DNA of 64,000 nt from a virus (IMGVR_UViG_3300033145_002015:1-64000), one strand, 5' to 3'; shown: positions 5,125 to 63,666, counted from the first letter of the stretch. Made by a program: numbers and translations. Notes: generated from the letters alone by a model not told the origin.

Positions 5125-5366
5125 CCCTCCTCCCGCAATCGATTGCGCCTATCGAAATAGATCTTCAAAAACCAGAGAAGGGCGGAGGTGAAAATCATTT
5201 TGAACACCACCAGCCCTTCCCAAAAACCAAACTCCCGAATCAGATAGTCGGCAACCGGATTCAATTCTTCAAAACCCAATACCATTACGCAATAATAAGT
5301 GGTAGTAATGTCCACTATCTGAAGCGAGATTAATACCGACCCTATGATCCACATGCTTCCTGCCAT
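5121..5366 (-). CDS. DUF5658-like membrane protein
   Basis: LQIVDITTTYY...EELNP motif, hydrophobic helices. Confidence 0.6.
   Translation of the reverse strand: MAGSMWIIGSVLISLQIVDITTTYYCVMVLGFEELNPVADYLIREFGFWEGLVVFKMIFTSALLWFLKIYFDRRNRLREEG
5134..5147. promoter_or_regulatory. Copy of dispersed palindrome CGCAATYRATTGCG
   Basis: CGCAATCGATTGCG; further exact copies at 18285, 20494, 22462, 23220, 28644, 41432, 53285, 58512, 63649. Confidence 0.8.
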
Positions 5367-5523
5367 GATAATTTTCTTCGAGAATCAAAATTCAAACTCT
5401 CTATCCAACTATTGAGCCAGACCCAATTATCGTCCCGCCCGCACATGGGACAGAATTGCCCAACAAATAACTCCTCGCACTGCGTACAGAATTTCGCTTC
5501 GGTTAATTTCATTTCCCACCTCC

Positions 5524-5895
5524 TTATTTCCGTACATGTTTTCTGGCGATCCTCATCAAAGCAGCATTCACTAACTCCCACAGCTCGGAAATACGAAGAT
5601 CCGACAGATCCAGAATCTTATTTTTCAGAAATCGTTCCTTCCCCCGACTGAATCCTTGTCCATAGATGAATTCCTGCAACAGCGAAAATAGCTGCAATAC
5701 CCGTTCCCGATCAGCGAAAGATCCGGTTTGATCGACCCTTCTTTCCATCAGCAGATCAATCACTTCATCGGCGGGAAACTCCGCCAATACATCCAGCATC
5801 CTCGCCATGACCTCTTTGATCTGAGCGATATCGGTTTCTTTTTTCTTGCCTTCGAGTTCTGCGACCTTTTGAGCTACGTCATTCAGATTGATCAT
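5524..5895 (-). CDS. Hypothetical protein; C-terminal half paralogous to 14936..15214
   Basis: Shared ERVLQLF...KIL(D/E)LSDL.I..LW.L...ALM.IA(R/K)K.VR. Confidence 0.65.
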   Translation of the reverse strand: MINLNDVAQKVAELEGKKKETDIAQIKEVMARMLDVLAEFPADEVIDLLMERRVDQTGSFADRERVLQLFSLLQEFIYGQGFSRGKERFLKNKILDLSDLRISELWELVNAALMRIARKHVRK

Positions 5896-6091
5896 GTCCT
5901 CTTACCTCCGCATCCCTAATTTTCACACATCTACACTTAATACATGGCATATCTTCATCACCCAGCCACGCACATTCCACCCATTCGGAACACCAGCGCT
6001 GGTGTTTCATAACTCTGTCATGCGGTTTGGCGTGCCTGCAATCGCCGCAATCTTCGCACGCTCGGTTACATATATATTGTTGAGAACTCAT
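5879..6091 (-). CDS. Small Cys-rich hypothetical protein
   Basis: Multiple CxxC-like motifs, overlaps next gene. Confidence 0.5.
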   Translation of the reverse strand: MSSQQYICNRACEDCGDCRHAKPHDRVMKHQRWCSEWVECAWLGDEDMPCIKCRCVKIRDAEVRGHDQSE

Positions 6092-6217
6092 TCAGCATCC
6101 TTTGGAATTCGTGCGAACCCCACGCTCTTTCCCATCTCGGTAGGGCCTAAAGGGGATTCTTGGTTCCTCAAACTGTGTCAAAGTGATCTGTCTGCCGATT
6201 GAAGAACCCCCTCCTTT

Positions 6218-7453
6218 CTACATTTGCGGCAAATAAACCAAGGCTCCGGGCCGCTCTACGAATCGAAGCCTACCAACAGATACGGGATAATTGTCGGAGA
6301 ACGGCAACCGACACTTCACCACCTTTCGGGATGGAACAAAACTACGCACCGTTCCCACAAAACTGCTCCCATCTCGCCTCGTATACTTCACAATGTCCCA
6401 ATGCCTGAATCCAGCAAACCCGTCATACCTGCAGTTGTGCATGTCTCGACGACGCCTGCGCACGACAATCTTAAATTCACAAACCATATCCTCAAAGTTG
6501 CGCGTTCTCAGAGCCAAGGCAAGAGCATCATTCGTATGGGACTTACTTAGATCCAACTGTTTCCGCTTTTCGGCAGTCTGCCAACCATATCTTACCTCAA
6601 GCTGCGCCATGCGTTTCAATCCATTCTTGGTGTAGGTCTTTCCCTGTTGCAACCAAGTGGGATATGCAAATATTCTCCCATGGACTTCAGGGTGCCCGAA
6701 CTCAGCAGCCGTGCGGTTGCCCTTGGCCTGATTGCAGGATCGACAAGCACACACGAGATTTGTCCAAGCCATTGTACCGCCCCTACTGCGTGGAATGATG
6801 TGGTCTACCTCGGCCACCAATCCAGCTTTTATACAGTCCACACCACAGTACTGGCAAACATATCTGTCACGCCAAAGAACCGCTATTTTCCTGTTCTCAA
6901 AGCTGCTGTTAGGCCCGCGCCGATAATCCTTTATGTCATCATCCCACAAGGCCCGGACATCAAATTGTCCCTCTTCATACACGATGCGACTGATGGGCAT
7001 TAACTTGATCAAGTCACGCACGACACGCAAGATATTGTCCTTACGTACTTTGACGCTCGGTGGTATCCAACCCGTCCCGTCTTTCCGCCTCCAACGCGGC
7101 TGGCGATGGCGCAAACGCGAACGCCTTGCCCGTCGCCGCATCCGCCGGTTGGCAAGTTCCTTTTTGACATTGTTCCGCAATTTGATTTCGGCTTTGAATA
7201 CCACATGGTCGCCACTTTTGTTGTGCTGCACCACGGCAATGCCCGCTGTCTTTGCCCCATCGTCAATTCCTACAGTCGTAGGCTGGACAACCGGGTTGGG
7301 TTTCATTTCGATCAAGCGAATTGTGAACGGCACAATTCGCTCAACCGTCGCCCGACCTTTCCTGAGTAGTTTCCTTGCTGCTGCGGGGTGACAGGGGCTT
7401 AACGGCCTGCCATCCCCATTCAGAACGAATACATAGTTTGACATTCCTGTCAC
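6218..7453 (-). CDS. iscB: IscB RNA-guided endonuclease (OMEGA, IS200/IS605 family)
   Basis: PLMP-like PLSP, RuvC-I VGIDDG, Arg-rich bridge helix RRMRRRARR, RuvC-II E, HNH (CQYC...VDHIIP...N...CNQAKG), RuvC-III SHTNDA. Confidence 0.93.
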
Positions 7454-7700
7454 TCCCTTTCGAGGTTAGAGGGCACCTCGGCCATGTGACGATTTTGCCA
7501 GACTAAGCTGGTGCGATACTCAGCCATGCTTACTCGCAAAAAACGAGAACCGTTCACGTAGACGGACACCTCACCGTCAGCAGACAGCTTAAACACCCGT
7601 CTTAGCCTTGAAGCCCCGTGCGCGTTGGCACATTCTGACCTACCTTGATCACTTTCGGTCAACTGCTGAGGGGCTCCTTCCCATATAAATTTGTTTTACG
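7454..7700 (-). ncRNA. Putative omegaRNA of IscB
   Basis: ~270-nt gap directly upstream of iscB containing GTTGACC and a 3' CATGGCCGAG...AACC..GAAAGG segment recalled as typical of iscB upstream RNAs; boundaries approximate. Confidence 0.7.
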
Positions 7701-7725
7701 CAGGGTTCGCACGCCAATCACAATC

Positions 7726-8252: not shown

Positions 8253-8262
8253 CTCCTTTCTC

Positions 8263-11349: not shown

Positions 11350-12027
11350 TCAATTGAACTCCTTCAACGCCTTTAAATTAGTATCAAGCCAATTGTGAAA
11401 GGATTTTCCATGCGACTGTTGCACATAAGGGGACTTGTCCATTGCCAATGGCTTTAAGTCGGTCCATCCTATGGGCCACCCCATAAGCAGTTCCGCTAAT
11501 TCCGGCGTGCATGGCCCTTTCCCGAAAGTTTGTCTCACCCAATCTCGAAATGTCCAATCTTTTCTCCGCCGCCGGCCAACAGATGGTCCTGATGTTCCAT
11601 CCGATACTCGAACGGTCGGCACAAATCCATAACCGCATTCGGACCTGATCTTGTGCGACAATGCACGCTGGAATTGCTGTGATTTTCCCACCATAACCCT
11701 CACGGCGCAAGCCGCCAAGTAAGGTTTCAAAAGAGGAGAAAAGTGGATACCGGGGCACTTGCTCAATGAACAGGTATTTCGGTCGCACAATCTTAATTGT
11801 GTCCAAGAACGCTGAAGTAAGGTCCCGTTCATCTTTCTCTCCTTTTCTTTTACCTGCGGCACTAAACGGCTGGCATGGGGGTCCTGCTGTGACGACTTCA
11901 ACCATTCCCTTATAGCTTTCGGCGTACCCTTGATTGATGAAATCTCGGATATCGCCGAATATTGGGGCTTCATCAAGGAATCCGTCTTTGATTCGCTGCG
12001 CAATGACTTGTTGGCAATATTTGTCAT
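11350..12027 (-). CDS. Alternative-frame C5-methyltransferase partner (motif IX-like) overlapping the MTase gene
   Basis: PELAELLMGWPIGWTDL; 225-codon same-strand ORF nested in another frame; true start uncertain. Confidence 0.6.
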   Translation of the reverse strand: MTNIANKSLRSESKTDSLMKPQYSAISEISSIKGTPKAIREWLKSSQQDPHASRLVPQVKEKERKMNGTLLQRSWTQLRLCDRNTCSLSKCPGIHFSPLLKPYLAACAVRVMVGKSQQFQRALSHKIRSECGYGFVPTVRVSDGTSGPSVGRRRRKDWTFRDWVRQTFGKGPCTPELAELLMGWPIGWTDLKPLAMDKSPYVQQSHGKSFHNWLDTNLKALKEFN

Positions 12028-12118
12028 TGTCTATATACCCCACACATTTCCAATTCAACAAATATTGGCATGCTAAATCCCCACCGCAAGCACCCGAATA
12101 AAGACTGAGATAAAACAT
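11384..12118 (-). CDS. DNA (cytosine-5) methyltransferase
   Basis: Motif I LSLYSGACG, catalytic IV GPPCQPFS, VI EQV, VIII QVRMR, X RLKAIGNGQV. Confidence 0.9.
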   Translation of the reverse strand: MFYLSLYSGACGGDLACQYLLNWKCVGYIDNDKYCQQVIAQRIKDGFLDEAPIFGDIRDFINQGYAESYKGMVEVVTAGPPCQPFSAAGKRKGEKDERDLTSAFLDTIKIVRPKYLFIEQVPRYPLFSSFETLLGGLRREGYGGKITAIPACIVAQDQVRMRLWICADRSSIGWNIRTICWPAAEKRLDISRLGETNFRERAMHAGISGTAYGVAHRMDRLKAIGNGQVPLCATVAWKILSQLA

Positions 12119-14408: not shown

Positions 14409-14939
14409 TTATCTTTTCCACCCAAAATCCCTTTTCTTTATTTTGGCCATTCTCCCATCAGGATGATGGAATACGATCCCCTCTATATCCAGATCCTTCA
14501 AATATTCCCTTAGTCCTTCGTATGTCCTCGGGGCATTTTCCAGTCGCTCGGCATCAGCATGTCTAATCAAAACATGCTTCTCAAACCTTTCTGGATTGCC
14601 CTGCACCTTGGGACCCACCAGCTCATAAGTCCCATCGGGTAGATCGGGCTTGAATGCTTCCATATGCCACTTATCTTTCTCCGTCACCGGGACCCAGCCA
14701 AACCGCTTGCCGGTAACCTCATCGAAATCAACCTCAATGAAATCTTCAGATACCGGTTTCTTCTTTGGTATACTACGCCTTTTGAAATATCCGCCGTTCT
14801 GAATCAAGACGCACGTTCCATCATACTTCCTGGTTGCAATCCCTTCCCCGCCCATAACCCAGATACAGAGCGGATTTACTTCGGGCAGTATCAGCTTTGT
14901 CTCAAGATCGCGCTTGAATAATGTAGGGATCTTCTTCAT
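14409..14939 (-). CDS. RNA ligase-like nucleotidyltransferase (DUF5565-like)
   Basis: MKKIPTLF, TRKYDGT (KxDG), GTYELVGPKVQGNP, EGIVFH...KIK. Confidence 0.7.
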   Translation of the reverse strand: MKKIPTLFKRDLETKLILPEVNPLCIWVMGGEGIATRKYDGTCVLIQNGGYFKRRSIPKKKPVSEDFIEVDFDEVTGKRFGWVPVTEKDKWHMEAFKPDLPDGTYELVGPKVQGNPERFEKHVLIRHADAERLENAPRTYEGLREYLKDLDIEGIVFHHPDGRMAKIKKRDFGWKR

Positions 14940-16486: not shown

Positions 16487-16515
16487 AGTATAACATAGCT
16501 TTTTCCCAATGTCAA
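16487..16515 (-). promoter_or_regulatory. sigma70 promoter
   Basis: TTGACA-17-TATACT. Confidence 0.85.
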
Positions 16516-16594
16516 GCAAAAAATAAATTTTCGCAGGACTGGCGTCGAGCAAATTCACAGGAACCCCCCGCAGAGGCGCAATCAATTTCGTATT

Positions 16595-18280: not shown

Positions 18281-18302
18281 CCCCCGCAATCGATTGCGGG
18301 GG
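18281..18302. promoter_or_regulatory. 22-bp perfect palindrome containing the CGCAATCGATTGCG core
   Basis: CCCCCGCAATCGATTGCGGGGG. Confidence 0.85.
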
Positions 18303-20448: not shown

Positions 20449-20477
20449 ATTATACTATAAGGAAAAAGAATAGTCAA
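20449..20477 (-). promoter_or_regulatory. sigma70 promoter
   Basis: TTGACT-17-TATAAT; palindrome copy at 20494 just upstream. Confidence 0.85.
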
Positions 20478-20520
20478 TAAAAAAGTGAACTCCCGCAATC
20501 AATTGCGCCTGACGAACGGT

Positions 20521-20583: not shown

Positions 20584-20613
20584 AAAAAAAGAAGCGGGGG
20601 GCGAACCCCCCGC
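20584..20613 (-). terminator. Rho-independent terminator
   Basis: GCGGGGGG-TTCG-CCCCCCGC, then TTC and a T tract on minus strand. Confidence 0.8.
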
Positions 20614-20619
20614 CCTTCG

Positions 20620-22406: not shown

Positions 22407-22436
22407 AGAATATCATAAAGAGTATAGGAATGTCAA
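22407..22436 (-). promoter_or_regulatory. sigma70 promoter
   Basis: TTGACA-18-TATTCT; palindrome at 22462 upstream. Confidence 0.75.
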
Positions 22437-22602
22437 GGAAAAAAGCGACCCTATAAAGAGGCGCAATTAATTGCGGGTACGGGGCGACCCGACCAACCCG
22501 AGAATCAACGAACCGGGGAGCCCATCTTCCTGCTAACCAACCCGTGAACTCGCTCCCCCGCCGACCAACCGGAAAGTAATCCCCTCCCAACGAACCGGGG
22601 CC

Positions 22603-22996: not shown

Positions 22997-23350
22997 ATGG
23001 AGAAAAAAAGAGAGGATGAACTGACTACGGGGGAAGACCTGTATGAATTAATTCCTGGAGAGAGACGTCCCCCCCGCCGTTGGTGGGAGGAAGAGGGAAA
23101 TATAGATCTCGACTCCCCCCCGCCTTGGGGGAGAGGAAAAGAGAGGGGTATATATAGACTGACTCCCCCCCGCCGGCTGACCAGGGAAATAGAAAAGGCT
23201 CTCCCCCCCGCTGCATTTCCGCAATTGATTGCGGGGATATTGAGAATAAAAGCGGTCCCCCCTGAAGGAAAAGAATTATTCGTAAAGGGTCCGCTCCCCC
23301 GCGTTGAGGGAGCGGTAAAATGTAGAAAAGATAAAATCCCAGTAGAATAA
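22997..23350 (+). CDS. Possible plus-strand low-complexity ORF (doubtful)
   Basis: Only plus-strand ORF not shadowing a minus-strand gene; lies in a purine-rich block. Confidence 0.25.
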   Translation: MEKKREDELTTGEDLYELIPGERRPPRRWWEEEGNIDLDSPPPWGRGKERGIYRLTPPRRLTREIEKALPPAAFPQLIAGILRIKAVPPEGKELFVKGPLPRVEGAVKCRKDKIPVE

Positions 23351-28585: not shown

Positions 28586-28614
28586 ATTATATCTTAAATG
28601 TAAAAGGGGGTCAA
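28586..28614 (-). promoter_or_regulatory. sigma70 promoter
   Basis: TTGACC-17-TATAAT; palindrome at 28644 upstream. Confidence 0.85.
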
Positions 28615-28669
28615 GAAAAAAATCAACTACAGGGCGGGAGGGGCGCAATCAATTGCGCCCCGACTTGGA

Positions 28670-29070: not shown

Positions 29071-31347
29071 TCAAACGATTCTCGCACGAAAACGCCTCCG
29101 TGCCGGCCTCGCTGATTTGGGTCTATTCTTTCGAGATCGTCGGGAACTACGCTCAGAAGAATCATGCGTTTCCTCCTGCCTGCGTCGGCGGAGAGCTTGC
29201 ATCGCCATAACTTCTTCTTCATCAAGAAGCATATCTTGCTCGTTTGAATCAGTGTCTTTTTGCTCTTCCTGTTCTATTTGTTCAGCGTCCGATTGAGCAG
29301 ATGTGCTGAGCCATTCCGGAAGCTGAAGATTCAATTCTTTCTGGCTGGCATAAGTAGCTCTGAGTTTGGTGAGATTGTAAACCACCCCGCAAACTGAATC
29401 AGCCAAGTCTTTGGATCCGTTTGGAGGATGATCCACTTTCGCATTCTCACGATCCAGTTCCAGCTCCCGCAATTCGGATAAGAGAACCGGATGCGGAGGA
29501 TATAATACCCGCTTCTGCCGCAAAGCCAGTTTGAAAGTCATATATGGATCTATGGATCGGTCCACGCTGATTCTTTTCGTAAAGATAGTACTGGTCTTTC
29601 TGACATTTTGCATAAGCTGGGCCGACTCGTATTTATCCATCGAAAGCCAGATGATCGGAATCCCCACCTTAGCCATGGCAAGAACCAGACCCTGAATTTT
29701 CTCAAGATCAATTTCTTCAGTTCGAGGCGGGACGACTTGAAGAATACCATCAATAAAAATGACTGGAGCCTTGATCCCCCGCATCGTTCGATAATTATCA
29801 GTGGCAGGGACATAATGCATGAGTTCGGCCTTGGGATTCAATCCCATCACTCTTCCGACAGCAATGCCGACGCTATTGGCAGTCAGAGCGGAATCGATAT
29901 GAATTGCGAATTCCGGTTCCCGCGTGAATCCGTGTGCGATCCAATTACGGATAAAAGTATCCACGTACTCATAATTGATTAACTGATCCAGATCGGTGCT
30001 GGAAATTTTATCCAAATCAATAGCATCATCGGTAAATAATTGCATCGGTTCCGGAACAATTCTTCTGTACGCAGTTATCGGCCATGTAATCCATTCACGA
30101 CTCGGGATAAATTGATGCCTTCGCACCCTCGGAATACCTGCAATATCTCGCAGGGCGGCGTCCATATCCTGTTCAAAATCCTGTTTATGCTCGATTGGAA
30201 CTTCAATTACATTCGATGGATCATCCGCTTCATCCATGGAGTTGATGATTCTGGCCTGTTTTCGCTCGTCTCCCAGATCGATCAGAAACATTTTTCCGGA
30301 ATATCGTCTGGAATCCAGCCTCCCGTCATCATATCGAAACGCTTCCCATTGAGGCATTGAAATATAAAGTACGGTTGGATTATTTTTGGCTTCAATTTCT
30401 TTCTGAGATGTGAAATCCCCAGGGTAATTGGCCGAAGAAACCAAAAATAATTTCCCCGGAAGGGTCCCCCCGGACTGTAAAAATCTCGATTTCATCCTGC
30501 GGAGGATGGTCAAATACAATTCTTTCGCCTTATCGTATTCATCTTCACCTCTTAATTCGGCCAATTTTGATTTTCTGGACCTTGCCATAAAATTTATTTC
30601 GTCAATACAGGCTGCAATTATGTTCATTCCCAGAGCAGAAGTGTCGCTTCCGCTTATTGGAAGGACGGAAATGTTATTTGGGAAGTGTAATTCAGTCGTA
30701 AAAGAAGGATCATACGGAAAAACGGACTTAAAATACGGGGAATTGATTATTTTTTCTCGAAAAGAGGAGAATAAAACCTTTTTTGCTAGAGTCAAGGTGA
30801 TTGATTGAAACGTCAAAACGATTGAAGATCCCGGAGCCAGGCCGAATTCAATTTGCGGATTATGATAACAGGACAGCAAATATAAGAAATATCCCATGGA
30901 AAGGTCGATTGTATAGTTCTTTCCCCATCCAATACTCCCAGAAAGCACAACCTCAATATACTGATTGGACTGAAAAATCTTATTTATTGCCCTTAAAACA
31001 CCTGGTCGGACTGCATCGGCCTGCCCCATATACTCAGGGGAACAGATAAACTCTTCCACCGAAACCGGTTGTCTGGCAAAACCACGATTTTGATAAAGAT
31101 AATCTGGATTGCTGGTCCTGATACTCGCAATCCAATTCTGATAAAAATCAATGATGTCTGCGACCCTGAAGTACCGCTTCCCGTTTTTTGTCCTCGATTC
31201 GACGGAGAAAATTACCCGTTCCATTTCCATCTGAAGACCTGCGGCCTCCCTGTGCGAAAGCTGCAGTTCTTCATTGGCGAGACGAACCAGATAATCCCGC
31301 ACGGATTCTTCGGAAATCCAAGAATCTCGTTGAGCTTTATTCGTCAT
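29071..31347 (-). CDS. terL: Terminase large subunit
   Basis: Walker A-like SGSIGWGKN, Walker B ACIDEINF, nuclease IHIDSA...DHPPNGSKDLADSV. Confidence 0.88.
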   Translation of the reverse strand: MTNKAQRDSWISEESVRDYLVRLANEELQLSHREAAGLQMEMERVIFSVESRTKNGKRYFRVADIIDFYQNWIASIRTSNPDYLYQNRGFARQPVSVEEFICSPEYMGQADAVRPGVLRAINKIFQSNQYIEVVLSGSIGWGKNYTIDLSMGYFLYLLSCYHNPQIEFGLAPGSSIVLTFQSITLTLAKKVLFSSFREKIINSPYFKSVFPYDPSFTTELHFPNNISVLPISGSDTSALGMNIIAACIDEINFMARSRKSKLAELRGEDEYDKAKELYLTILRRMKSRFLQSGGTLPGKLFLVSSANYPGDFTSQKEIEAKNNPTVLYISMPQWEAFRYDDGRLDSRRYSGKMFLIDLGDERKQARIINSMDEADDPSNVIEVPIEHKQDFEQDMDAALRDIAGIPRVRRHQFIPSREWITWPITAYRRIVPEPMQLFTDDAIDLDKISSTDLDQLINYEYVDTFIRNWIAHGFTREPEFAIHIDSALTANSVGIAVGRVMGLNPKAELMHYVPATDNYRTMRGIKAPVIFIDGILQVVPPRTEEIDLEKIQGLVLAMAKVGIPIIWLSMDKYESAQLMQNVRKTSTIFTKRISVDRSIDPYMTFKLALRQKRVLYPPHPVLLSELRELELDRENAKVDHPPNGSKDLADSVCGVVYNLTKLRATYASQKELNLQLPEWLSTSAQSDAEQIEQEEQKDTDSNEQDMLLDEEEVMAMQALRRRRQEETHDSSERSSRRSRKNRPKSARPARRRFRARIV

Positions 31348-32119
31348 CGAGTTCCACTACCTCAAAGACACCTTCCTGATTCTTCAATGTGTCTAAAAAC
31401 TTCTCGGATGCCGTCAACATCCGATCCATTCCAACAGATGTATCTATCTTCCGCCGGTGCATTTCCAGTCCCTGTTTGGCGAAACCGATATTCAATTGAT
31501 ACGGCTGCCTCGGATAAATTCCAAGCTCAATAGAATACTTCAGATAGGTGTCAACCAGTTCATTCAATACTTTCAATTCTTTATTGAGACCTTTAATTGG
31601 AACGCCTCCCCCGAGGCTCTGCTCTCGTTGATAAAATCCATCAATACGCTGGATTTGAATTTTGATTGCCTTACTCAGAGTATCCAAACCATCCACACGC
31701 TCTACGATTTTATCTACGATTTCCCGCTTCTTTGCCGTCCATTCGGCCAGCTCGGGCACGCTTTCAGCCTGGCCGAGAAGTCCTCCGAGTCTAGCCTCAT
31801 ATGCCATGATGGCTCTGGACACATGCCAAATCGTTAGATCAGTCAGCTTGCCAAAATCTTTCTGGATTTTATGGGCCAGTTCTTCATAGACAGGCTTGCC
31901 TCGTTGCTTTGCGCTCTTGAGACGTGCGGCTACCTGAAGCAATTCTTCGTCACCCAGCGCATCGAGAATACTTACGACACGTGCTCTCGATCCATCGGGG
32001 TTATACCGCATGGCTTTGCGAAGTTTGTAAAGAATTCCATTCCTGACTGCCCTATCCACGACCAGATCGGAAACTTGCCCGGTTTCTTCGACTGTTTGAA
32101 GCAATTCGTTTGATTCCAT
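31337..32119 (-). CDS. Putative terminase small subunit
   Basis: Helical protein overlapping the terL start; positional call only. Confidence 0.45.
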   Translation of the reverse strand: MESNELLQTVEETGQVSDLVVDRAVRNGILYKLRKAMRYNPDGSRARVVSILDALGDEELLQVAARLKSAKQRGKPVYEELAHKIQKDFGKLTDLTIWHVSRAIMAYEARLGGLLGQAESVPELAEWTAKKREIVDKIVERVDGLDTLSKAIKIQIQRIDGFYQREQSLGGGVPIKGLNKELKVLNELVDTYLKYSIELGIYPRQPYQLNIGFAKQGLEMHRRKIDTSVGMDRMLTASEKFLDTLKNQEGVFEVVELDDE

Positions 32120-32125: not shown

Positions 32126-33055
32126 CTATTGCCCTGCCGTTTCTTCCAGTCGATCCAAAAACTCTTGATTCAATTCCAAGTCCAAAGTTTTAGGTTCTGG
32201 TGTGTCGAGTTGATCTTTGAATTGCGTGATGAACTTCTCGGTCAATCCTTTTTTAATCAGAAGGCGAATCGCTGAAGATACAGTCACTTCATGCTGTTGG
32301 CAGAGAAGAAACTTTTCCTTGATAAGTTTGAAATCGGATGCCTTTTCCAGACGCACCCATAAATGCTGCTTCCCGCCAAAGTCGAAAATCATATAGTTAT
32401 AATCAAGACTGTCGCCATACTTTGAAAACAGCTTATTAAGAATCCGAGTCAGATCTTCCACCGATTTGATCTCGTGCTTAATCGCATCGAATTCCTTTTT
32501 GATCTTTCCTTCCAATCCAGCCGAGACATCCTCAACCAAGGATTCAAATTCCCTCGGCTCAGGAAAGGCCATGTTGTGTTCGATGTCAGGAATTGAGTAC
32601 CCCATATCCAGCAATTCCTGCACCAAAACCTGAAATTTCTTTTTATTGAGTTGCCCACGAAGGCGGTTCATTCTGACAGTCTGGAATCGTTGTTTCGTCT
32701 CATCAATATCTTCTTTGATGATGCATGGAATTTCAGTCGCATCGGTAAATAATTTAAGCCCTTGATACCGCTGCTCCCCATCAATGATTCGATACTTCCC
32801 GGTAGGAGTCCCGTCTGATCCTTTAATCGGAGTCACGAGAATCGGCTGAGCCATGCCGAGTTCATTCAGATTATCCACCAAGAAGTTGAACAAATCTTCC
32901 GACATTTCTGATGGATTCCATTCATTTGGAACCACATCATCAATGGGAAGCATCTTATATGGAAGATGCTCTACATGCTTCAACTCAATTTGTTCTTCTT
33001 CAGCCTGATTCTTGCTGATCTTTGCGTCTTCAGTTTGTTTCTTTTTTCGAGGCAT
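32126..33055 (-). CDS. ParB/Srx N-terminal-domain protein
   Basis: VVPNEWNP..M, L...GMAQPILV, YRIIDGEQRY, MNRLRG. Confidence 0.85.
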   Translation of the reverse strand: MPRKKKQTEDAKISKNQAEEEQIELKHVEHLPYKMLPIDDVVPNEWNPSEMSEDLFNFLVDNLNELGMAQPILVTPIKGSDGTPTGKYRIIDGEQRYQGLKLFTDATEIPCIIKEDIDETKQRFQTVRMNRLRGQLNKKKFQVLVQELLDMGYSIPDIEHNMAFPEPREFESLVEDVSAGLEGKIKKEFDAIKHEIKSVEDLTRILNKLFSKYGDSLDYNYMIFDFGGKQHLWVRLEKASDFKLIKEKFLLCQQHEVTVSSAIRLLIKKGLTEKFITQFKDQLDTPEPKTLDLELNQEFLDRLEETAGQ

Positions 33056-36196: not shown

Positions 36197-37146
36197 GAAG
36201 AAATCAGACTATCGTTGGTCGAAACCCATTTTTCGCACATCGCCGAAACTCGAACCCAGACCAAAAACCAATCTTCTTCCGAGATTGAGGTCCTGCGCAA
36301 ACATGCCTGCTTGAGAAACCTTTCCCATTGCAGTTGCCGATTGGAAGTCACCTTATCCGTATAGAAAATCCGCCATGCCAGTAGAATATCTTCAGGGCTG
36401 ATGGAATTTGTTCCAACCCGCAATCCGTTGGATACCGATCGAGCAATTTGTCGTCCAATCGATGTTGATGGATGTACGATATACCACGGAATAGTATTGG
36501 TGAAAGTGTTTGATTCTGGATTCTCACGATCAGTTTTAGTGATGTTCCAATTTGGAGGTTCGGTGATCAGTAAAATACACATTGCAAGCGCAAGCAGGCG
36601 ATCCTGCGGTTCGCTGCAACGCAGCGCCAATGCGGTAGCATCTTCCAGTAAGGACCGAATTACCGGAGACGCTTTGGGACGAATCTCTTCGGCTATAAAC
36701 ACTCTGATCTTGGATTTCTTCCCGTCAGCGATTTCGGCGGCAGATTTCATAAGACGATATTGTTGTATCAACCTAGAAGTCGCAGATTGCGGAAGCCGGA
36801 AAAACTTCAAAGTCGGATCTGCGAATAATTGCCATAAAACATAACCTGAACGGTTTCCCACTCGCTTAGTCATCTCGAAATAGGCAGTCTTAGCAATCTT
36901 CTTCGCCAATTCTTCATTGCCGTTTTCGAGATGAAGTCTGCAAAGCCGATGCGCAGTGGAAGCCAAATCGAAAGAATGAAAACATTCTGAAGCCGCAATC
37001 AATTGCAGGTCTCTATCCACGAAGTCGTCCCGAAAAAATCTCCACATTCGATCGAACATAGCAAAGTGGGCGGTCGCAAGATTGCGACGCACCCCCATCA
37101 TCAATCCAAACCTAAGCGTCTCCCGCCACACGCCTGATTTGCGCAT
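36193..37146 (-). CDS. Degenerate paralog of 35150..36133
   Basis: LMMGVRRN aligns with IQKAIRRS; PWYIVHPSTSIGR aligns with PYWAYDQHTRIGK; similar length. Confidence 0.5.
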   Translation of the reverse strand: MRKSGVWRETLRFGLMMGVRRNLATAHFAMFDRMWRFFRDDFVDRDLQLIAASECFHSFDLASTAHRLCRLHLENGNEELAKKIAKTAYFEMTKRVGNRSGYVLWQLFADPTLKFFRLPQSATSRLIQQYRLMKSAAEIADGKKSKIRVFIAEEIRPKASPVIRSLLEDATALALRCSEPQDRLLALAMCILLITEPPNWNITKTDRENPESNTFTNTIPWYIVHPSTSIGRQIARSVSNGLRVGTNSISPEDILLAWRIFYTDKVTSNRQLQWERFLKQACLRRTSISEEDWFLVWVRVSAMCEKWVSTNDSLISS

Positions 37147-40969: not shown

Positions 40970-41504
40970 ACTGTTCTTCGTATAGATATAGATCGTTCTT
41001 GTCCCTTACTACCACTGCCTCTACCAATTTGGCTACAGCGAAAGCATCGCAGACATCATCATTGGGAAAAATAATCTTCCACTTGGCGTGGGCGTAGGCC
41101 AGATGCAAATTCTTTTTCACATTGGAACCGTGACCCACAATAAACTTCTTCAACGTTTTGGGATTCACTTTCAGGGGGAGCCTCCCGGTCAAAGACCAAA
41201 GGGTCTGTTTGATGAGACATCCGACTTCTGCCAGATCAATCAGCCGTCCCACGACTTTTCCCAAAGCATAATCTTCAATGCCCCACCAGCAATTGGTCGG
41301 CGGCTCCCCAACAACCTCACACACCTCTGAAACTTTTTTCATGACTTCCGTAGCAATATATCGTACCCTCACCTCCTTCGACGTAAAATTTTGCGGCCTA
41401 GTCTTGACCACATGCAGTTTCACTACCGAGCCGCAATTAATTGCGGCTATGCCGGTAGCCGTCAATGAAGAATCAATTCCAATTATGAGCGGCTCTGGTC
41501 CCAT
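40884..41504 (-). CDS. RuvC-like Holliday junction resolvase
   Basis: IGIDSSLTATG, GIEDY, LKKFIVGHG..KK, NDDVCDAFA. Confidence 0.8.
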   Translation of the reverse strand: MGPEPLIIGIDSSLTATGIAAINCGSVVKLHVVKTRPQNFTSKEVRVRYIATEVMKKVSEVCEVVGEPPTNCWWGIEDYALGKVVGRLIDLAEVGCLIKQTLWSLTGRLPLKVNPKTLKKFIVGHGSNVKKNLHLAYAHAKWKIIFPNDDVCDAFAVAKLVEAVVVRDKNDLYLYEEQCVQKVLETNPDWYTVFQGWKEAQDGRSS

Positions 41505-44025: not shown

Positions 44026-44347
44026 CTTCCATCTCCTTTACGACGGCATCCAATTTTTCGTCTACCCATCCCAAAACATCGGCATAGACTGAATCTATTT
44101 CTTCCACATAACACGGCATTTCTAAAGAGACATCAACTCTTCCGAATTCCATATTCCCGAGATTCACAGTCGCTCCCATTCGGACAGAAACTTTGGCCGG
44201 TTCAGTGACAAAACTACGAACCTGAATCACTTCATCAGTTTGTTTCAGCGAGGTCCTGTACGTTGAGATCACCGCTATCGCTGCTGCGGATTTCTGTTTC
44301 TTCTGGGGCTTTGACTTCAGTATTGACTCGTTTGGTTTGCGGGTCAT
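43979..44347 (-). CDS. Hypothetical protein
   Basis: RBS GGAGG; GATVNLGNMEFGRVDV. Confidence 0.6.
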   Translation of the reverse strand: MTRKPNESILKSKPQKKQKSAAAIAVISTYRTSLKQTDEVIQVRSFVTEPAKVSVRMGATVNLGNMEFGRVDVSLEMPCYVEEIDSVYADVLGWVDEKLDAVVKEMEGDRKTTGSDVGGTDF

Positions 44348-44813
44348 AAATAACCTCCTTATTCCAATACTTTTTCAGCAAAAGCCTGGTTGCTGCACGT
44401 TGTTTACGAGTCATCCGCTGATACCCCTTCATTTTGCTCAGCAGCAGAATCTGGGTCGGCGTGAACCACCGCCAGCGCCTCGACGTAGTGTCCCGCACCG
44501 GCTCAGGAATAATCCCTTCCTTGATCCAGTGTCGAACAGTCAGAATAGAAACTTCCGCAATTTTGGCCGCATACGATATCGAATAATAGGTCATCCCATC
44601 TTTGATGACAATGTTGTGAGCCACATCAGTAGGCTCCCCGAATTCATACACCTTCTTACCTTCCCGAATTTTTCGTCTTCGATAGCTCTCTCTGGAAAGC
44701 TGCTTCAGACGTTCGCGATAGTCGGGATCAGTTCGATACCTCTCGCGTTTTTTCTTGGCTATCCGGTGTTTATGCACTTCGTAATAGTCTCTGTGATAAG
44801 ATGCATCTACCAT
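44235..44813 (-). CDS. MerR-type HTH DNA-binding protein
   Basis: YSISYAAKIAEVSILTVRHWIKEGIIP...RWFT; start reassigned (RBS GAGGAGG). Confidence 0.7.
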   Translation of the reverse strand: MVDASYHRDYYEVHKHRIAKKKRERYRTDPDYRERLKQLSRESYRRRKIREGKKVYEFGEPTDVAHNIVIKDGMTYYSISYAAKIAEVSILTVRHWIKEGIIPEPVRDTTSRRWRWFTPTQILLLSKMKGYQRMTRKQRAATRLLLKKYWNKEVIYDPQTKRVNTEVKAPEETEIRSSDSGDLNVQDLAETN

Positions 44814-48451: not shown

Positions 48452-49774
48452 TCAAGAAAAATCGTTTTCCGACTCTAAAACTTCCGATTGAGCGAAAATG
48501 ACTCCCGCCTCAGCAATTCTCATGCGGAACAGGTCGAATAGAATCTTTATCACAGCGAAGCCTCCCTCCCGATCTTTCATGACTGTCAGAATCCGTGTTG
48601 TTTCCCCACTATCCATGCTGAAGTCATCAACAGTAGACTCAGAAGTTTCGTCCAGAGAAATATCCAGGGCGATGGCGGCCGCCTGTCCGATGGTATCCGA
48701 ATAACCGATGGTTTCCAAAGTTCCTCCCGCCATCGAAGAAGAGCGATCTCTCTTGGCTCTATTGGATATGACGGATTTACGGCCTTGTTGATATGATGCC
48801 ACGACTGGAATTCTGAGATCCAAGGCCAATTTTCTAAGGTCTCTGGCGACGGATGAGACACGTTCCCACGTTGATGGTTCCCGCCGATCAGGTTCGACCA
48901 TGTAAGCGCCATCCACAAAGACAATATCAGGTTCGATTTCTCGGACACGCATCAGCAAATCCGAAATTTTCGTGGATAAACTGCCTTCCATGATGAAGAA
49001 CTCATCCCGTTCCGCCAACATTGCTCTGGCTTCTTCGACTTTTCGCATGGCATATGGGCTTAGCTTACCGGAACGTAAACGCCCATGCGGGACGTGGGAT
49101 ATCAGGGATAGCAATCTCGACGTACATTGAGACGCCGGCATCTCCATTGATACGAATAGCACTTTACGGTTTTGGGCGAAGTACGTATTGAGAGCCATAT
49201 GAAGCAAAAGATAAGTTTTACCAGCACCAGGTCTCCCGGCCACCACCAAAAAGTCTTCATTCTGCAATCCCCCTGTCATGTTGTCCAATGTCGGAAATCC
49301 AAGAGATAATCCCAAGAGCGTTGACGCCCTCTGGTATTCTCGATGCCTCTGCACGACCATTTCAGAGGCATCGCTGACTTTAATAACCGGATTGCTTTGA
49401 TGAACAGTCCTAGATGCAACCGCAATTGATTGCAGCCGGTTATAGGCTTCTTTTGGTTTACCACTAGCCAGAAGCCTTCTCGTGTCTTCGATCCCCCTTT
49501 CCAAAATCTCATGAAGACGACGCTCTTTGATCCGCTCCGCCCAAAAAGCGAGCGGAGCTTGGGGCATTTGCCGCGGAAATTTGATTCCAAGCTCCGCTTC
49601 GACGATCTCCAACTCAGGAATAGTCCCGAATCTAGAATAAAAGTTCTCGATAAAAAGCAGCACATTTTTTTCAGATTCATGAAAGAAGCTCCTGTCCAAG
49701 CCCAATTCCGTCAGCACTAATGGGGGGCTCTTCTCCCTTATCAACGCCTTCAGTATTCCCAGCCCAAGGCTCAT
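48452..49774 (-). CDS. dnaB: Replicative DnaB-like helicase
   Basis: AGRPGAGKT, FVSMEM, VFVDG, SDTIGQ, KDREG. Confidence 0.9.
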   Translation of the reverse strand: MSLGLGILKALIREKSPPLVLTELGLDRSFFHESEKNVLLFIENFYSRFGTIPELEIVEAELGIKFPRQMPQAPLAFWAERIKERRLHEILERGIEDTRRLLASGKPKEAYNRLQSIAVASRTVHQSNPVIKVSDASEMVVQRHREYQRASTLLGLSLGFPTLDNMTGGLQNEDFLVVAGRPGAGKTYLLLHMALNTYFAQNRKVLFVSMEMPASQCTSRLLSLISHVPHGRLRSGKLSPYAMRKVEEARAMLAERDEFFIMEGSLSTKISDLLMRVREIEPDIVFVDGAYMVEPDRREPSTWERVSSVARDLRKLALDLRIPVVASYQQGRKSVISNRAKRDRSSSMAGGTLETIGYSDTIGQAAAIALDISLDETSESTVDDFSMDSGETTRILTVMKDREGGFAVIKILFDLFRMRIAEAGVIFAQSEVLESENDFS

Positions 49775-53024: not shown

Positions 53025-53417
53025 TCAATTCTGATATACTAGGACTAATTCCTGAGTCGCAGGATCGACCTTCTTTTCAGTCATAATGTATCCTTGGTTC
53101 ATCAATTCTTCGGAGACCACGATTTCGGTATAAGTTTTTGCCAGTTTGCCACAATTGCGGCCAAGAATTCCTCCGATTGGATTATCATAATAATCCAGGA
53201 CCACATTATAGTGATCGCCATCTTTGACCACAGCGGCCCCGTAGGTCGGCGTAGCTTCCTGGCCAATTTCAGTGATCACCCCGGCGCAATCAATTGCGCC
53301 TCCATACTTGGAAACATATTTGGCTTGTTCCGTGAATTGCAAATTCAACATCGCCAAAGCCCGCTTCAAGGTGGGAAGATCTTTGATCTTCCAGGTTGAC
53401 TTGGTGAAGTGACTCAT
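53025..53417 (-). CDS. DUF1257 (Ycf35-like) protein
   Basis: MSHFT....IKDL..LKRAL..L. Confidence 0.75.
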   Translation of the reverse strand: MSHFTKSTWKIKDLPTLKRALAMLNLQFTEQAKYVSKYGGAIDCAGVITEIGQEATPTYGAAVVKDGDHYNVVLDYYDNPIGGILGRNCGKLAKTYTEIVVSEELMNQGYIMTEKKVDPATQELVLVYQN

Positions 53418-58495: not shown

Positions 58496-58529
58496 GAAAA
58501 ATCCGACGAGGCGCAATCGATTGCGCCCC

Positions 58530-58874: not shown

Positions 58875-59228
58875 TCACCTGAATTCGAGCCCCCTCCAAT
58901 GTCGCTTTTCCAGGCGCTTTGTTGCGCCAAACTTCTGTTCAATGCTTCTGGCCAATGCTTCTGCGTTTACAGTCTCCCCGCAGGTGAAGACATCCAGGGC
59001 GGCAAATCTGAATTCGGGCCATGTATGAACGGCGAGGTGCGACTCTGCCACCAAAACTAAACATGTGACTCCATGAGGATCGAATTGCTTGGTTTGCACT
59101 CCCAAAACGGTGCAGCCCCAATTTTTGGCTTCGGAAACCAGCAATTCTTCAAGCAGCTCCGAATCGTTGAGAATAGATTCATTGCACTCGAACAGATCAA
59201 TCAGAATATGTTTTCCTACGCCGTTCAT
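58875..59228 (-). CDS. speD: S-adenosylmethionine decarboxylase proenzyme
   Basis: GKHILIDL, F.PHGVT, AESHLAVHTWPE, DVFTCG. Confidence 0.92.
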   Translation of the reverse strand: MNGVGKHILIDLFECNESILNDSELLEELLVSEAKNWGCTVLGVQTKQFDPHGVTCLVLVAESHLAVHTWPEFRFAALDVFTCGETVNAEALARSIEQKFGATKRLEKRHWRGLEFR

Positions 59229-60736: not shown

Positions 60737-61984
60737 TTATATCGGCTCCGCGCGGCCGCGGCCGCCGATAGTCGAAGCCACGGACCAGCGATACATAGTC
60801 GCATTCCGCGCGCGCGACCCGGAAGACGCCCCGCTATTCCATACCGCGCCCGCCCGGAGCTTAACATCACCGTAGGTGCCTTGCTTGTACAGCGAGCCCT
60901 TAGTCCCAGGAAGATTGTACTCGCCGCAGGACGGAGCTGGATCCACGTTCGTCGGATCATACGGGTCGCCGTGGTTATGCTCGCCGCCGTCATAACGATA
61001 CGATTGATCTCTCAGCCACTGCCACATCACGCCACAGCAGTCCTCGCACCCGATATTGGAGATCATCCTCCTTCCGGCGGTATCCACATGGCCGCCGGTG
61101 GTGACGGGATCAACGCTGCCCTGGATGTTTGTCTCCTCGTTGGAGCCTGCAGCGATGATTTGAAATTCAGGATCAGAAAGTAGCTGTTTCTTGACTTCCG
61201 CAAAATCGTCTACAAAATCCATCCAGTTACGGCTGTCGCTGATAGTACCGCCATGGGCTGATGCTGTACTTGCTCCCGTGCCGCTAGCCAAGTAAATGTC
61301 CACCCAAATGTTAGCCTTCTCGCTATAGACCATCCCCTCAGGACTGCATCTGGGACGATGTTTCAGATCCCAAATCGAAGCGGGCAAAATATCATTGGCG
61401 TAATAATTGGCTAGGTCGTGCTCTCTACACGTCCAGGTCACAGTACCATCATCTACGGTATCTCCTGGTGTGGTAGGCCATGTTGGCTCAGAGGCTCCCG
61501 AAGTCCCCGCTACAGTGACTTCGTACCAGTACCCATTGTCGGTCGTAGGAGCCCGGAAATCGCCCAGGCTGTATGCAGTCGATGCAGCCCAATCCGAGGG
61601 GTCGGCATCTGCGCAAAGAGTGTGAAAGCCTCCAATCTTGCGGGAATTATCCGCCGTGAAGCCTGATGGATAGGTGCTGTTCAATGAAATTTTGAATACC
61701 AAGCTTCCATTATCGTCACAGGCATAGACATAGTAGTCTTTGCCATTAGCTACTGTGCCGGTATCAAGGTCGGTAGCCGTGCTGACATTTGTATCCGTGT
61801 CTATGAGAAACCAACTATCACCGATGCGGAGCGGAATAATGTCTGAGCCTTTTACCACCACCTTATCATGGTCAGTTGCATGGGCTTCTAGGATCCGATC
61901 TAACTTATTGAGATAAAAATTAGAAAGAACCGCCGCCGCGATCATGTTATCACTTTCGTCCTTTGTGACTTTTCGATTAGCCAT
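60737..61984 (-). CDS. Tail fibre/receptor-binding protein with Mtd-like C-type-lectin C-terminus
   Basis: WDLKHRP...PEGMV...WVDIYL; GCEDCCGVMWQW; AGAVWNSG..SGSR...IGGRG; internal WAASTAY...W sugar-binding-like repeat. Confidence 0.75.
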   Translation of the reverse strand: MANRKVTKDESDNMIAAAVLSNFYLNKLDRILEAHATDHDKVVVKGSDIIPLRIGDSWFLIDTDTNVSTATDLDTGTVANGKDYYVYACDDNGSLVFKISLNSTYPSGFTADNSRKIGGFHTLCADADPSDWAASTAYSLGDFRAPTTDNGYWYEVTVAGTSGASEPTWPTTPGDTVDDGTVTWTCREHDLANYYANDILPASIWDLKHRPRCSPEGMVYSEKANIWVDIYLASGTGASTASAHGGTISDSRNWMDFVDDFAEVKKQLLSDPEFQIIAAGSNEETNIQGSVDPVTTGGHVDTAGRRMISNIGCEDCCGVMWQWLRDQSYRYDGGEHNHGDPYDPTNVDPAPSCGEYNLPGTKGSLYKQGTYGDVKLRAGAVWNSGASSGSRARNATMYRWSVASTIGGRGRAEPI

Positions 61985-62267
61985 TCTGCTTCACCACCTT
62001 TCTGTGTTTTGCAATCAGGGCAGCTATTTCGTTGCGATTTTTGAACCCCTTGCTTTTCCACAGTGGCATGGGATTGTCAATCTCTTCTGTGACTAGGTCT
62101 TTTGTCTCCTCAGATCCAGAGATGACCCTTTTGACTCTGTCATCTTTAATACCAGAAAGCCTTTCCAAATCTTTAAGAGCCTGCGCTTTGAATTCTTTTA
62201 TACTGAGCAGATTCTCAAAGTCTTGTTTGGTCGCGATATGCTTAGGATATCCTCTCATGATACTCAC
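61977..62267 (-). CDS. Tail-fibre-associated small protein
   Basis: MRGYPKHIATKQDFENL; position. Confidence 0.5.
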   Translation of the reverse strand: MSIMRGYPKHIATKQDFENLLSIKEFKAQALKDLERLSGIKDDRVKRVISGSEETKDLVTEEIDNPMPLWKSKGFKNRNEIAALIAKHRKVVKQNG

Positions 62268-62271
62268 TCCT

Positions 62272-63237
62272 TTACGTCGTATATGTCGGATACGCCTTGA
62301 TGTAGTAATAATTACCGGACGCTTCGTCCTTCACCTTCAGCACTTTGGGTGCACCGGATAGCGTGGCATCGTCTTCAAGGGCCGCAACACCGAGCTCTCC
62401 TACGTTAGTTAGGTTTTTGCCTCCTAAATCGGTATGTTGTTTAGCGCCTGAATATGGGACAAAAATGTCCTGGAAAATCTCGCTGCTGGCGGGGATCTCC
62501 CACCTGCTTGATGTATCTCCTTGGTAATAGACACGGACGGTAGGAGCGTTCCCGCCGCCGGAAACGTCGGCATACAGCTTCCCTACTATCCTGCTGGTCG
62601 CTTCCGGAAGGTAGTCCTCGTCGAGCTGCAAAGGAACCATGTAGGTCGCCTTGGAAGTTATTTCATTTGAATTGGAACTGGTGGCGATGACAAATTCGGA
62701 AGTATCGGCCTTCCGCTCGATCAGCTCCCAGTAAACCCTGAGTGTCTTACCGCCGACCGTCTTTTCAAGAGCAACATACCAATCATAGACACCTTTGAGT
62801 AGCTTAGCGGGAGCCTGCCCCGAAGCGGAGATCCAGCCGCCGATATAATCATCGTCCGAGAGACTGGCCTTCTCTATGTATGTTTCACCGTCTGAAGATG
62901 GAGTTAGGTAGCAAGTCTTGTATCCAGTGGCATCATCTTCATCGTACATATAATATGATGCGCCGAGCGATGTGACCGCCAGGTCCACATACTCCTTGTT
63001 GACGAGGCTCTTAATATCAACGGCGCCGTTTGGAGTAGTTTCCAATACACCCGAATCTGTAATATCAATGCTCGTAACCGTGGGAGAATCGGTAAATTCA
63101 ATTCCATTTTCCGTATTATTTACTACTGGAATGTCTCCGGCTTTTCCGCTGTAGGCCGAAGGAGTATCGGTAAGTTCTAAGAAAGTATCAATTTTGCCCC
63201 GGGTTAATGAAATGCTTTTGCTGACAGGAATACGCAT
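62272..63237 (-). CDS. Tail fibre-related structural protein
   Basis: FLELTDTPSAYSGKAG, NKEYVD motifs. Confidence 0.6.
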   Translation of the reverse strand: MRIPVSKSISLTRGKIDTFLELTDTPSAYSGKAGDIPVVNNTENGIEFTDSPTVTSIDITDSGVLETTPNGAVDIKSLVNKEYVDLAVTSLGASYYMYDEDDATGYKTCYLTPSSDGETYIEKASLSDDDYIGGWISASGQAPAKLLKGVYDWYVALEKTVGGKTLRVYWELIERKADTSEFVIATSSNSNEITSKATYMVPLQLDEDYLPEATSRIVGKLYADVSGGGNAPTVRVYYQGDTSSRWEIPASSEIFQDIFVPYSGAKQHTDLGGKNLTNVGELGVAALEDDATLSGAPKVLKVKDEASGNYYYIKAYPTYTT

Positions 63238-63294
63238 AGTCGTGTACCTCCAGCCACGTCAGACACTACTTTTGGATAGTGGTCTCCGCCGACG

Positions 63295-63624
63295 CTAGTC
63301 GATCAAAAGCACTTCCAGAGTGCCTGACGCAGCGACGCTTTGAACGTAGAATATGGTCTCTCCCGACGTTTTGGCCAGATCTAAAGACAATGATCCTTCC
63401 ACAGTAACGTATCGGGCACCATTCGATAGATGCGACATTTTCCAAGATGTGCCGTCCCGTAAAGCCGCAGCAATGCTTTTACAAGAAAGGCCGCTGGGGA
63501 CGGTTATGGCGGTCCATGACGAATTGTCCACGGACTCGTTCAAAATATCTGCGATAGTACTTCCCCCCGGAATCGGGACCAGGTTGGGATCTTGACGATA
63601 GGCTGTTCCTTGCTGAGTCGCCAT
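63295..63624 (-). CDS. Small virion structural protein
   Basis: Start reassigned to MATQQ (RBS AGGAGG). Confidence 0.55.
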   Translation of the reverse strand: MATQQGTAYRQDPNLVPIPGGSTIADILNESVDNSSWTAITVPSGLSCKSIAAALRDGTSWKMSHLSNGARYVTVEGSLSLDLAKTSGETIFYVQSVAASGTLEVLLID

Positions 63625-63666
63625 TCTAAATTTCCTCCTATCGCCACCCGCAATCAATTGCGGGTG

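Follow-up and report, generated by a model that had tools for sequence, protein, structure and literature searches.

A dispersed palindrome in the window

We analyzed a 64-kb stretch of viral DNA (IMGVR_UViG_3300033145_002015:1-64000, referred to below as the window), which is part of a 90.6-kb phage contig and in which a 14-base palindrome, spelled GCAATYRATTGC, recurs once per ~5 kb. Site counts cover bases 1 to 64000. The genes of the window are nearly all located on the minus strand and include those encoding the portal, a PolA-UDG fusion, DnaB, the large terminase, and a RecA-like protein. The pattern CGCAATYRATTGCG was present in 10 exact copies (at 5134, 18285, 20494, 22462, 23220, 28644, 41432, 53285, 58512, and 63649) and in 3 copies with one mismatch (at 16577, 36994, and 49421). 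These coordinates and copy numbers exactly reproduce those of an initial annotation of this DNA, which had proposed a parS-like or stoperator-like system. Dinucleotide-preserving shuffles led to the expectation of 0.00 exact and 0.09 one-mismatch matches, a background against which the enrichment claimed in that annotation holds. Scanning of the window with two mismatches did not reveal any additional site (13 found versus 1.15 expected), indicating that the set of sites has sharp limits, in contrast to an ordinary regulon, in which the sites are graded.

Gene boundaries were assigned by picking start codons according to the ribosome-binding site (RBS). On this basis, eight sites are intergenic, one (5134) lies at a gene junction, and four (36994, 41432, 49421, and 53285) are intragenic, placing 9 of the 13 sites outside gene bodies in a sequence containing ~10% non-coding DNA (P = 5e-7). 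The junction copy (CGCAATCGATTGCG, 5134..5147) overlaps the last codons of a small open reading frame (ORF) and is located upstream of an RBS (GGAGGAGGG) and of an ATG at 5124. The four best sigma-70-like minus-strand promoters in the 16- to 29.2-kb region start 17 to 62 bp downstream of a site. The copy at 20494..20507 is 17 bp from promoter 20477..20449 (TTGACT-17-TATAAT), the intergenic copy at 22462..22475 is 26 bp upstream of promoter 22436..22409, the copy at 28644..28657, which is bordered by GGGG/CCCC arms, is 30 bp upstream of promoter 28614..28586 (TTGACC-17-TATAAT), and the intergenic one-mismatch copy at 16577..16590 (CGCAATCAATTTCG) is 62 bp upstream of promoter 16515..16487. The intergenic copy at 58512..58525 precedes a T-run with TTGAC and the PolA-UDG gene. 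The proximity of five sites to −35 boxes, as initially described, was thus recovered. Among the remaining intergenic copies, that at 18285..18298 is embedded in a 24-bp perfect palindrome with CCCCC/GGGGG arms, that at 23220..23233 has no adjoining predicted promoter, and that at 63649..63662, with CACC/GGTG arms, lies between the stop codon of the ORF at 63667-63984 and an RBS with its ATG at 63624. The intragenic sites comprise a one-mismatch copy at 36994..37007, which reads LQLIA within the gene at 36193-37146, an exact copy at 41432..41445 within a RuvC-like gene (40884-41531), a one-mismatch copy at 49421..49434, which reads LQSIA within dnaB (48452-49774), and an exact copy at 53285..53298 within a DUF1257-like gene (53025-53417). 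These four sites are truly intragenic, and the proposal that selection at the DNA level persists within genes is supported.

Complementary extension of the arms by at least 2 bp, with differing G/C sequences, was found at 6 of the 10 exact copies (0.6 expected; P = 9e-6), in agreement with the extended arms noted initially, and three other copies have non-complementary S-rich (G or C) flanks (CC..CC or GG..GG). A role as terminators was rejected because only the site at 22462 was weakly flagged and because the strong terminators nearby are other G+C-rich hairpins followed by T-runs. Such hairpins, distinct from the palindromes, were observed on the minus strand at 20592-20615, 19853-19872, and 17099-17126. 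At 20.4 to 20.6 kb, the copy at 20494 lies between a canonical terminator (20615..20592) and its promoter, so that the order along the transcript is terminator, palindrome, promoter.

Arrays in related phages

No close DNA relative of the window was found in phage and plasmid collections. Relatives were reached via portal homologues, through which metagenomic and IMG/VR contigs that share the gene order were identified. Arrays were detected in these genomes by a de novo count of recurrent palindromes and then confirmed on whole-genome reads. Twelve related genomes carry lineage-specific versions of the form T-G-C-A-A-x-(C-G)-x-T-T-G-C-A, with about 7 to 40 copies each. The versions include TTGCAATWWATTGCAA in G001 (29 copies), TGCAAGCGMTTGCA in both G002 (16 copies) and G003 (23 copies), TACAATTAATTGTA in G004 (17 copies), TGAAATYRATTTCA in G005 (32 copies), TTGCAAACGTTTGCAA in G006 (18 copies), CTTTCA-N6-TGAAAG in G007 (6 to 8 copies), GTGCACACGTGTGCAC in G008 (10 copies), TGAACWCGWGTTCA in G009 (about 10 copies in a 100% complete genome), TCCGCAAACGTTTGCGGA in G010 (21 copies), and TGCAAGCGATTGCA in G321 (15 copies). 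The cultured Rhodobacter phage RcDurkin carries 40 copies of TRCAATCGATTGYA, and Rhizobium phage L338C carries 12 to 14 copies of TGCAACNNGTTGCA in the first 34 kb, the part that was read. Further partial relatives also bear arrays. RcDurkin and L338C are the closest deposited isolates by portal and polymerase, with portals only ~32% identical to that of the window. In RcTiptonus, a sister of RcDurkin, the sites occupy the same places, the two phages being 98.5% identical and too close to gauge purifying selection. The RcF phages are virulent and display P1-type headful packaging, and the repeat is not mentioned in their description (PMC8601537). Searches of the literature for the motif, or for RcF or L338C phages in combination with palindromes, did not retrieve any description of the array of this family.

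Thus, the array is kept family-wide with a spelling that varies by lineage, which is the conservation on which the initial annotation had made its proposal depend. No comparable motif was detected in two more distant relatives, G012 and G014. Two other repeats were observed among the relatives. A distant relative of 107 kb and 58% GC (G015) contains 12 dispersed copies of a different 22- to 24-bp palindrome, AGTTGTCGCCCCGGGGCGACAACT, and a 122-kb relative (G011) contains ten tandem 25-bp units with GGTCGACCCCGCGACC at the contig end (122476-122744).

Spacing, placement, and unit of the array

The coefficient of variation (CV) of the spacing between sites was 0.37 to 0.67, in comparison to ~1 for random positions, and evenness reached P ≤0.02 in 8 of 13 genomes (G001, G003, G004, G005, G006, G010, G321, and RcDurkin). 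In the structural half of G005, a site is found every 3.0 to 5.2 kb (~3.3-kb intervals), including two within a gene encoding 2,569 amino acids (aa). For RcDurkin, for which the annotation is manual, 20 of the 40 sites fall in non-coding DNA, which makes up 8% of the genome (P = 4e-12), and these intergenic sites are often squeezed into gaps of 30 to 100 bp within one operon. The intragenic share therefore ranges from 31% in the window (4 of 13 sites) to 50% in RcDurkin (20 of 40). The positions of individual sites are poorly conserved: comparison of G002 with G003 revealed 1 of 11 and 0 of 14 positions in common, and comparison of the window with G001 and with G004 revealed 0 of 4 and 1 of 5, respectively, the site at 41432 being the only one of the window with a position kept in G004. 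The density of the array is kept in relatives despite this turnover, which points to a function of coverage rather than one exerted at particular promoters, terminators, or stoperators. No conserved element was found beside the palindrome in any of 10 genomes, and no promoter element was found at a fixed distance from it.

Solo half-sites were barely enriched, indicating that the inverted pair is the unit; a Chi-like function of the half-site was ruled out for the same reason. The center can be any pyrimidine-purine step, and asymmetric centers occur in both orientations. In G005, the center is never CG, since a CG center would create ATCGAT, a sequence avoided in this genome (1 occurrence versus 20.9 expected). 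TCGA is also depleted in G005, and the two depletions suggest restriction-site avoidance. Together, the symmetry, the pair unit, the even spacing, and the turnover of positions point to a symmetric dimer acting on duplex DNA.

Candidate reader proteins

In order to find proteins accompanying the array, all ORFs of 14 genomes were clustered. Three adjoining minus-strand genes form a module anchored by the large terminase gene (TerL, 29071..31347). The start of TerL is overlapped by a gene encoding an HTH-like and coiled-coil protein, a putative small terminase (31337..32119), which lies between TerL and a gene of the packaging operon encoding a protein with a ParB/Srx-type nucleotide-binding domain, a candidate accessory of the array (32126..33055). 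The ParB-like protein matches Pfam ParB_N (E = 3.9e-9), and its residues 35 to 158 align to Spo0J/ParB structures. The GxxRxxA-type motif has the consensus DGEHRYEA in the family and reads GEQRYQG in the window protein, with replacement of the final A by G. The remainder of the protein, beyond the N-terminal domain, is a conserved domain of no assigned kind, and the AlphaFold model is of low confidence (mean pLDDT of 61). The family of the HTH-like and coiled-coil protein is represented in 11 of 12 array-bearing genomes, and this protein is weakly favored as the candidate reader of the palindrome.

Other candidates fared less well. The MerR-like winged-HTH protein (44235..44813, minus strand) is encoded between the helicase and RecA genes and is conserved beside the helicase gene. 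It had been put forward as a binder in the initial annotation and was rejected since it does not covary with the motif: G002 and G003 have the same motif and differing HTHs, and G003, G006, G007, and G008 have the same HTH and differing motifs. A DUF3102-like protein had also been proposed, and no such family was found in Pfam scans of the window ORFs examined. Small ORFs of the early region (17 to 22 kb) did not match any Pfam family. Reading of the palindrome as a pac site by the small terminase is unlikely, because the defined left end of RcDurkin has a different, direct-repeat array. This left end (L107:1-260) contains ~8 direct repeats of GACATAACCGATTT in the first 240 bp of the packaging end, and the 10-mer AATCGGTTAT is present in 14 copies in the RcDurkin genome. 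The left-end repeats may be a pac or an early-promoter array.

Proposed function of the array

We tentatively favor a phage-encoded coverage system, tied to the ParB-like/HTH/terminase module, in which the palindromes form an array of docking sites. Each palindrome would be a high-affinity docking site for a symmetric, dimeric, sequence-specific DNA-binding protein, and the sites together would form a genome-wide, roughly evenly spaced array upheld by the whole phage family. Through spreading, sliding, marking, or recruiting, the bound factor would exert its action on the few kilobases that surround each site. Selection would bear on density and spacing and not on exact positions. Some sites stand just before strong early promoters, others are promoter-distant, and some are intragenic where no gap exists. 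In the phage of the window, the reader would be the HTH-like and coiled-coil protein of the packaging operon, with the adjoining ParB-type nucleotide-binding protein as its partner. The role could be DNA modification, a glycosyltransferase gene being located next door, packaging, or global control of transcription.

Several observations weigh against this proposal. In a crude covariation scan, run column by column over the conserved core proteins, no cluster of columns matched the motif partitions. The candidate encoded at 31337-32119 resembles a small terminase in position and build, Foldseek retrieved only coiled-coil noise, and comparison of its profile with PDB sequences did not yield a match. 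In favor of this protein, the four TTGCAA genomes have K immediately before its conserved SLAR helix, and another residue stands there wherever the half-site differs, but this weak lead comprises ~10 sequences and is confounded by phylogeny. In the ParB-like protein, an acidic helix (consensus DxDEFExLIE) occupies the HTH position. The phage ParBs described in a 2026 report likewise have no obvious DNA-binding domain (PMC13229309). Furthermore, four array-bearing genomes (G004, G007, G008, and G009) contain neither a ParB_N match nor a BLAST homologue of the ParB-like gene. Since G009 is complete, this distribution and the acidic helix rule out the ParB-like protein, another binder suggested by the initial annotation, as the universal reader. 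For the window taken alone, evenness is not significant (CV of 0.65; P = 0.07). Finally, the operator form is shared with host LacI/GalR sites, and exact 14-mers are found beside LacI-family genes in bacteria.

Presence of the ParB-like gene nevertheless correlates with the density and evenness of the array. Genomes with the gene have denser arrays (Mann-Whitney P = 0.028), and clearly even arrays were found in 7 of 8 genomes with the gene and, among the four without it, only in G004. A functional link is therefore likely. A more specific form of the coverage proposal, which we consider rather doubtful, is self-marking: a two-gene ParB-like apparatus encoded next to the terminase, comprising the nucleotide-binding protein and its adjoining HTH and coiled-coil partner, would load at the sites and cover a few kilobases from each, so that phage DNA alone would be admitted to post-replicative modification, to packaging, or to both. 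If true, this system would extend ParB-type chemistry to the whole genome of virulent phages, with conservation ranging from the phages of Rhodobacter and Rhizobium to many lineages without cultured members. The window also encodes a C-5 cytosine DNA methyltransferase domain (11384-12118, minus strand; PF00145, E = 1e-23, N-terminal half of the profile only). Alongside the glycosyltransferase and the ParB-like gene, this domain is a hint that phage-encoded enzymes modify the phage DNA.

The array is ancient and is actively maintained in a large siphophage family with genomes of roughly 60 to 110 kb. Any of the readings, whether clamp or marking, host-regulator sponge, or priming, points to a manner of handling the whole chromosome or the host that is undescribed in lytic phages. 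The cultured virulent members RcDurkin and RcTiptonus (Rhodobacter capsulatus) and L338C (Rhizobium leguminosarum) allow a direct test. In practice, the array also provides a lineage marker, with one palindrome per lineage in 7 to 40 copies per genome.

Alternative explanations

The sites could instead be operators of a host regulator of the LacI/GalR family akin to PurR, CcpA, Cra, or GapR. During replication, the phage genome would then titrate the host repressor as a sponge and derepress a metabolic regulon, such as that for nucleotide synthesis, or the host regulator would serve the phage as a nutritional sensor; in RcDurkin, the sponge form would require that a host LacI-family protein bind TGCAATCGATTGCA. 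Comparison of the motifs of 13 genomes revealed a family consensus, T-G-x-A-A-x-C-G-x-T-T-x-C-A, which is the operator form of the LacI family. The motifs of G010 and G006 contain GCAAACGTTTGC, the core of the E. coli PurR box. LacI-family operators are even palindromes, with a central CG in 1,173 of 1,251 even-palindrome motifs (PMC4052901). In bacterial genomes, matches to the exact 14-mer of the window were mostly due to chance. Paired copies of CGCAATCGATTGCG adjoin LacI-family genes in a Rhizobiaceae contig (L151:2569-2608) and a Clostridiales contig (L218:4369-4447), where the tandem copies are likely natural operators of local sugar- or acid-utilization regulators, and the exact 14-mer lies beside a LacI-type HTH at a third bacterial locus. 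The RcDurkin 14-mer occurred 12 times across 301 Rhodobacteraceae genomes, versus 0 for the control, and in one of these genomes it was located 94 bp upstream of a LacI-family gene; at 10 of the 12 occurrences there was no LacI-related context. A function depending on the number of sites would fit the turnover of positions, and none of the phages encodes a LacI-type HTH. A sponge leaves the even spacing unexplained, however, and retention of the TGCAA half-site extends to phages with widely differing hosts (37 to 58% GC). Since no orthology links the global LacI regulators of Rhodobacterales with those of Rhizobiales, and their motifs differ (PMC4052901), retention of TGCAA is better accounted for by inheritance with the phage. 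LacI operators lie 30 to 140 bp upstream of start codons, with <1% of the sites in coding DNA (PMC4052901) versus 31 to 50% in the phage arrays, and the sites of the window and of RcDurkin do not follow this placement rule. A crude test for a GapR motif, made on the regions upstream of pckA from 30 Rhodobacteraceae genomes, did not recover any shared CG-centered palindrome. Altogether, we regard a host LacI/GalR regulator as an unlikely explanation of the arrays.

Three phage-based explanations were also weighed. An explanation in which the sites serve as ordinary operators for a phage factor controlling the early-to-late switch of transcription, with intragenic and distant copies as internal promoters or roadblocks, would account for the site centered ~55 to 100 bp upstream of the predicted start at 4 of the 8 strongest minus-strand promoters (16 to 29 kb) and at the PolA promoter. 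It would also account for the highest density of sites in promoter-rich early regions (16.5 to 23.3 kb in the window and 87.5 to 89.9 kb in RcDurkin). We nevertheless consider it quite unlikely, since the 10 genomes searched have no promoter element at a fixed distance from the sites, the sites tile long structural genes such as that of G005 with two copies, and positions turn over between relatives; the authors who described analogous repeats in Cluster O mycobacteriophages drew the same negative conclusion (PMC4351075). As hairpins in single-stranded nucleic acid, the palindromes could signal priming or loading on intermediates of lagging-strand synthesis or recombination, or, in RNA, could stabilize or process the long transcripts. 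The 2 to 5 extra complementary pairs of differing sequence at 6 of the 10 exact window sites would then be part of the stem, a palindrome would function on either strand, the 2- to 5-kb spacing matches the size of Okazaki fragments, and a DnaG-like primase and a DnaB helicase are common to all array-bearing genomes. Hairpins are highly unlikely in view of the three window sites with S-rich non-complementary flanks, of a core stem of only 5 bp, and of the conservation across distant phages of the sequence and not just of the pairing. In addition, coding-strand variants in RcDurkin favor the A-C mismatch (12 sites) over the G-U wobble (4 sites), and the real terminators of the phage are different G+C-rich hairpins with T-runs. 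Cleavage or nicking of the sites by a homodimeric phage nuclease to start recombination-dependent replication is extremely unlikely. A 14-bp perfect palindrome is typical of the sites of homodimeric endonucleases, RecA-like, Cas4-like exonuclease, RuvC-like, and endonuclease VII-like proteins are encoded in all array-bearing genomes, and a conserved 327-aa protein with an endonuclease VII-like C terminus (37990-38973) is an example of a candidate. This case is purely circumstantial, and the RcDurkin reads gave only one defined end, of the P1 packaging type (PMC8601537).

Other genes in the window

Five further features of the minus strand were observed apart from the array. An S-adenosylmethionine decarboxylase (58875-59228; PF02675, E = 1e-33) is encoded just upstream of the PolA promoter region. 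A protein with RRXRR and HNH domains assigned by Pfam (6218-7453) is IscB-like. An Mtd-like second domain (60737-61984) possibly belongs to the target protein of a diversity-generating retroelement. The last two features are an RNA ligase 1-like domain (14409-14939) and a DUF4942 domain (25879-26706).

Comparison with known systems

KorB, a CTP-dependent clamp of the ParB family, loads at dispersed OB sites of plasmid RK2, slides, and acts at a distance (PMC11790492). The phage array resembles this system in that a short perfect palindrome is dispersed replicon-wide, sometimes adjacent to promoters and sometimes far from them, in an element that encodes a ParB-type protein, and action at a distance would explain why coverage matters. 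RK2 contains about 12 OB sites; the phage copies number 13 to 40, are evenly spaced, and are intragenic for a third to a half of them, in a virulent phage and not a plasmid. In contrast to KorB, a DNA-reading HTH is not convincingly discernible in the phage ParB-like protein, which four of the array-bearing relatives lack, and no ParA- or KorA-type partner was seen in Pfam scans of ~70 window ORFs, which did not exhaustively cover small ORFs. Since presence of the ParB-like gene tracks density and evenness, dispersed loading of the parS/KorB type is the best functional analogy, and this part of the initial annotation stands.

The other part, the stoperator analogy, is not supported. The stoperators of Cluster A mycobacteriophages, the C1 operators of P1, and the conserved inverted repeats of phiC31 are many dispersed copies of a repressor site. 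Stoperators share with the array the dispersion of many copies of one short site, including promoter-distant positions. Stoperators and C1 operators are asymmetric, oriented with transcription, and involved in lysogenic immunity (PMC4351075 for stoperators), whereas the sites of the phage array are symmetric, with centers in both orientations and no linked immunity repressor, and the relatives in culture are virulent. The operators of LacI/GalR regulators (PurR box, CcpA cre) are, like the phage sites, even palindromes built on the half-site TGxAAxC and centered on CG or another pyrimidine-purine step (PMC4052901). They differ in being degenerate and promoter-bound, whereas the phage sites are near-perfect, evenly spaced, and for many of them located in coding sequences.

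Dispersed phage palindromes have been noted before and never explained, the nearest published case being that of Cluster O. Cluster O mycobacteriophages contain a 17-bp dyad repeat, TGTTCGGNNNCCGAACA, in 34 copies in Corndog, for which the authors proposed in 2015 a dimeric binder in a process other than transcription initiation, leaving the function open (PMC4351075). The phages of Cluster O differ from those described here by the sequence of the repeat, its geometry (7+3+7 versus 6+2+6), and an unrelated phage lineage and host phylum, and neither evenness nor conservation beyond one cluster was reported for them. The likeness is one of pattern only. Tens of near-invariant palindromes are found throughout the genome (~70 kb in the Cluster O case, with more than 30 copies), about a third of them in genes, with a variable center, no orientation bias, and a higher density towards one genome end, in phages that are not obviously temperate and that encode a ParB-like domain protein, an AAA ATPase, and glycosyltransferases.

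The final comparison is with phage ParB homologues that activate post-replicative thymine dioxygenases, described in the 2026 report cited above (PMC13229309). No 5mYOX dioxygenase was identified in the window, and no dispersed palindrome array is described in the available portion of that report. The phage ParBs that it places beside DNA-modification enzymes keep the nucleotide-binding and dimerization domains, and the window resembles these phages in the location of the ParB-like gene beside DNA-modification and packaging genes (PMC13229309).

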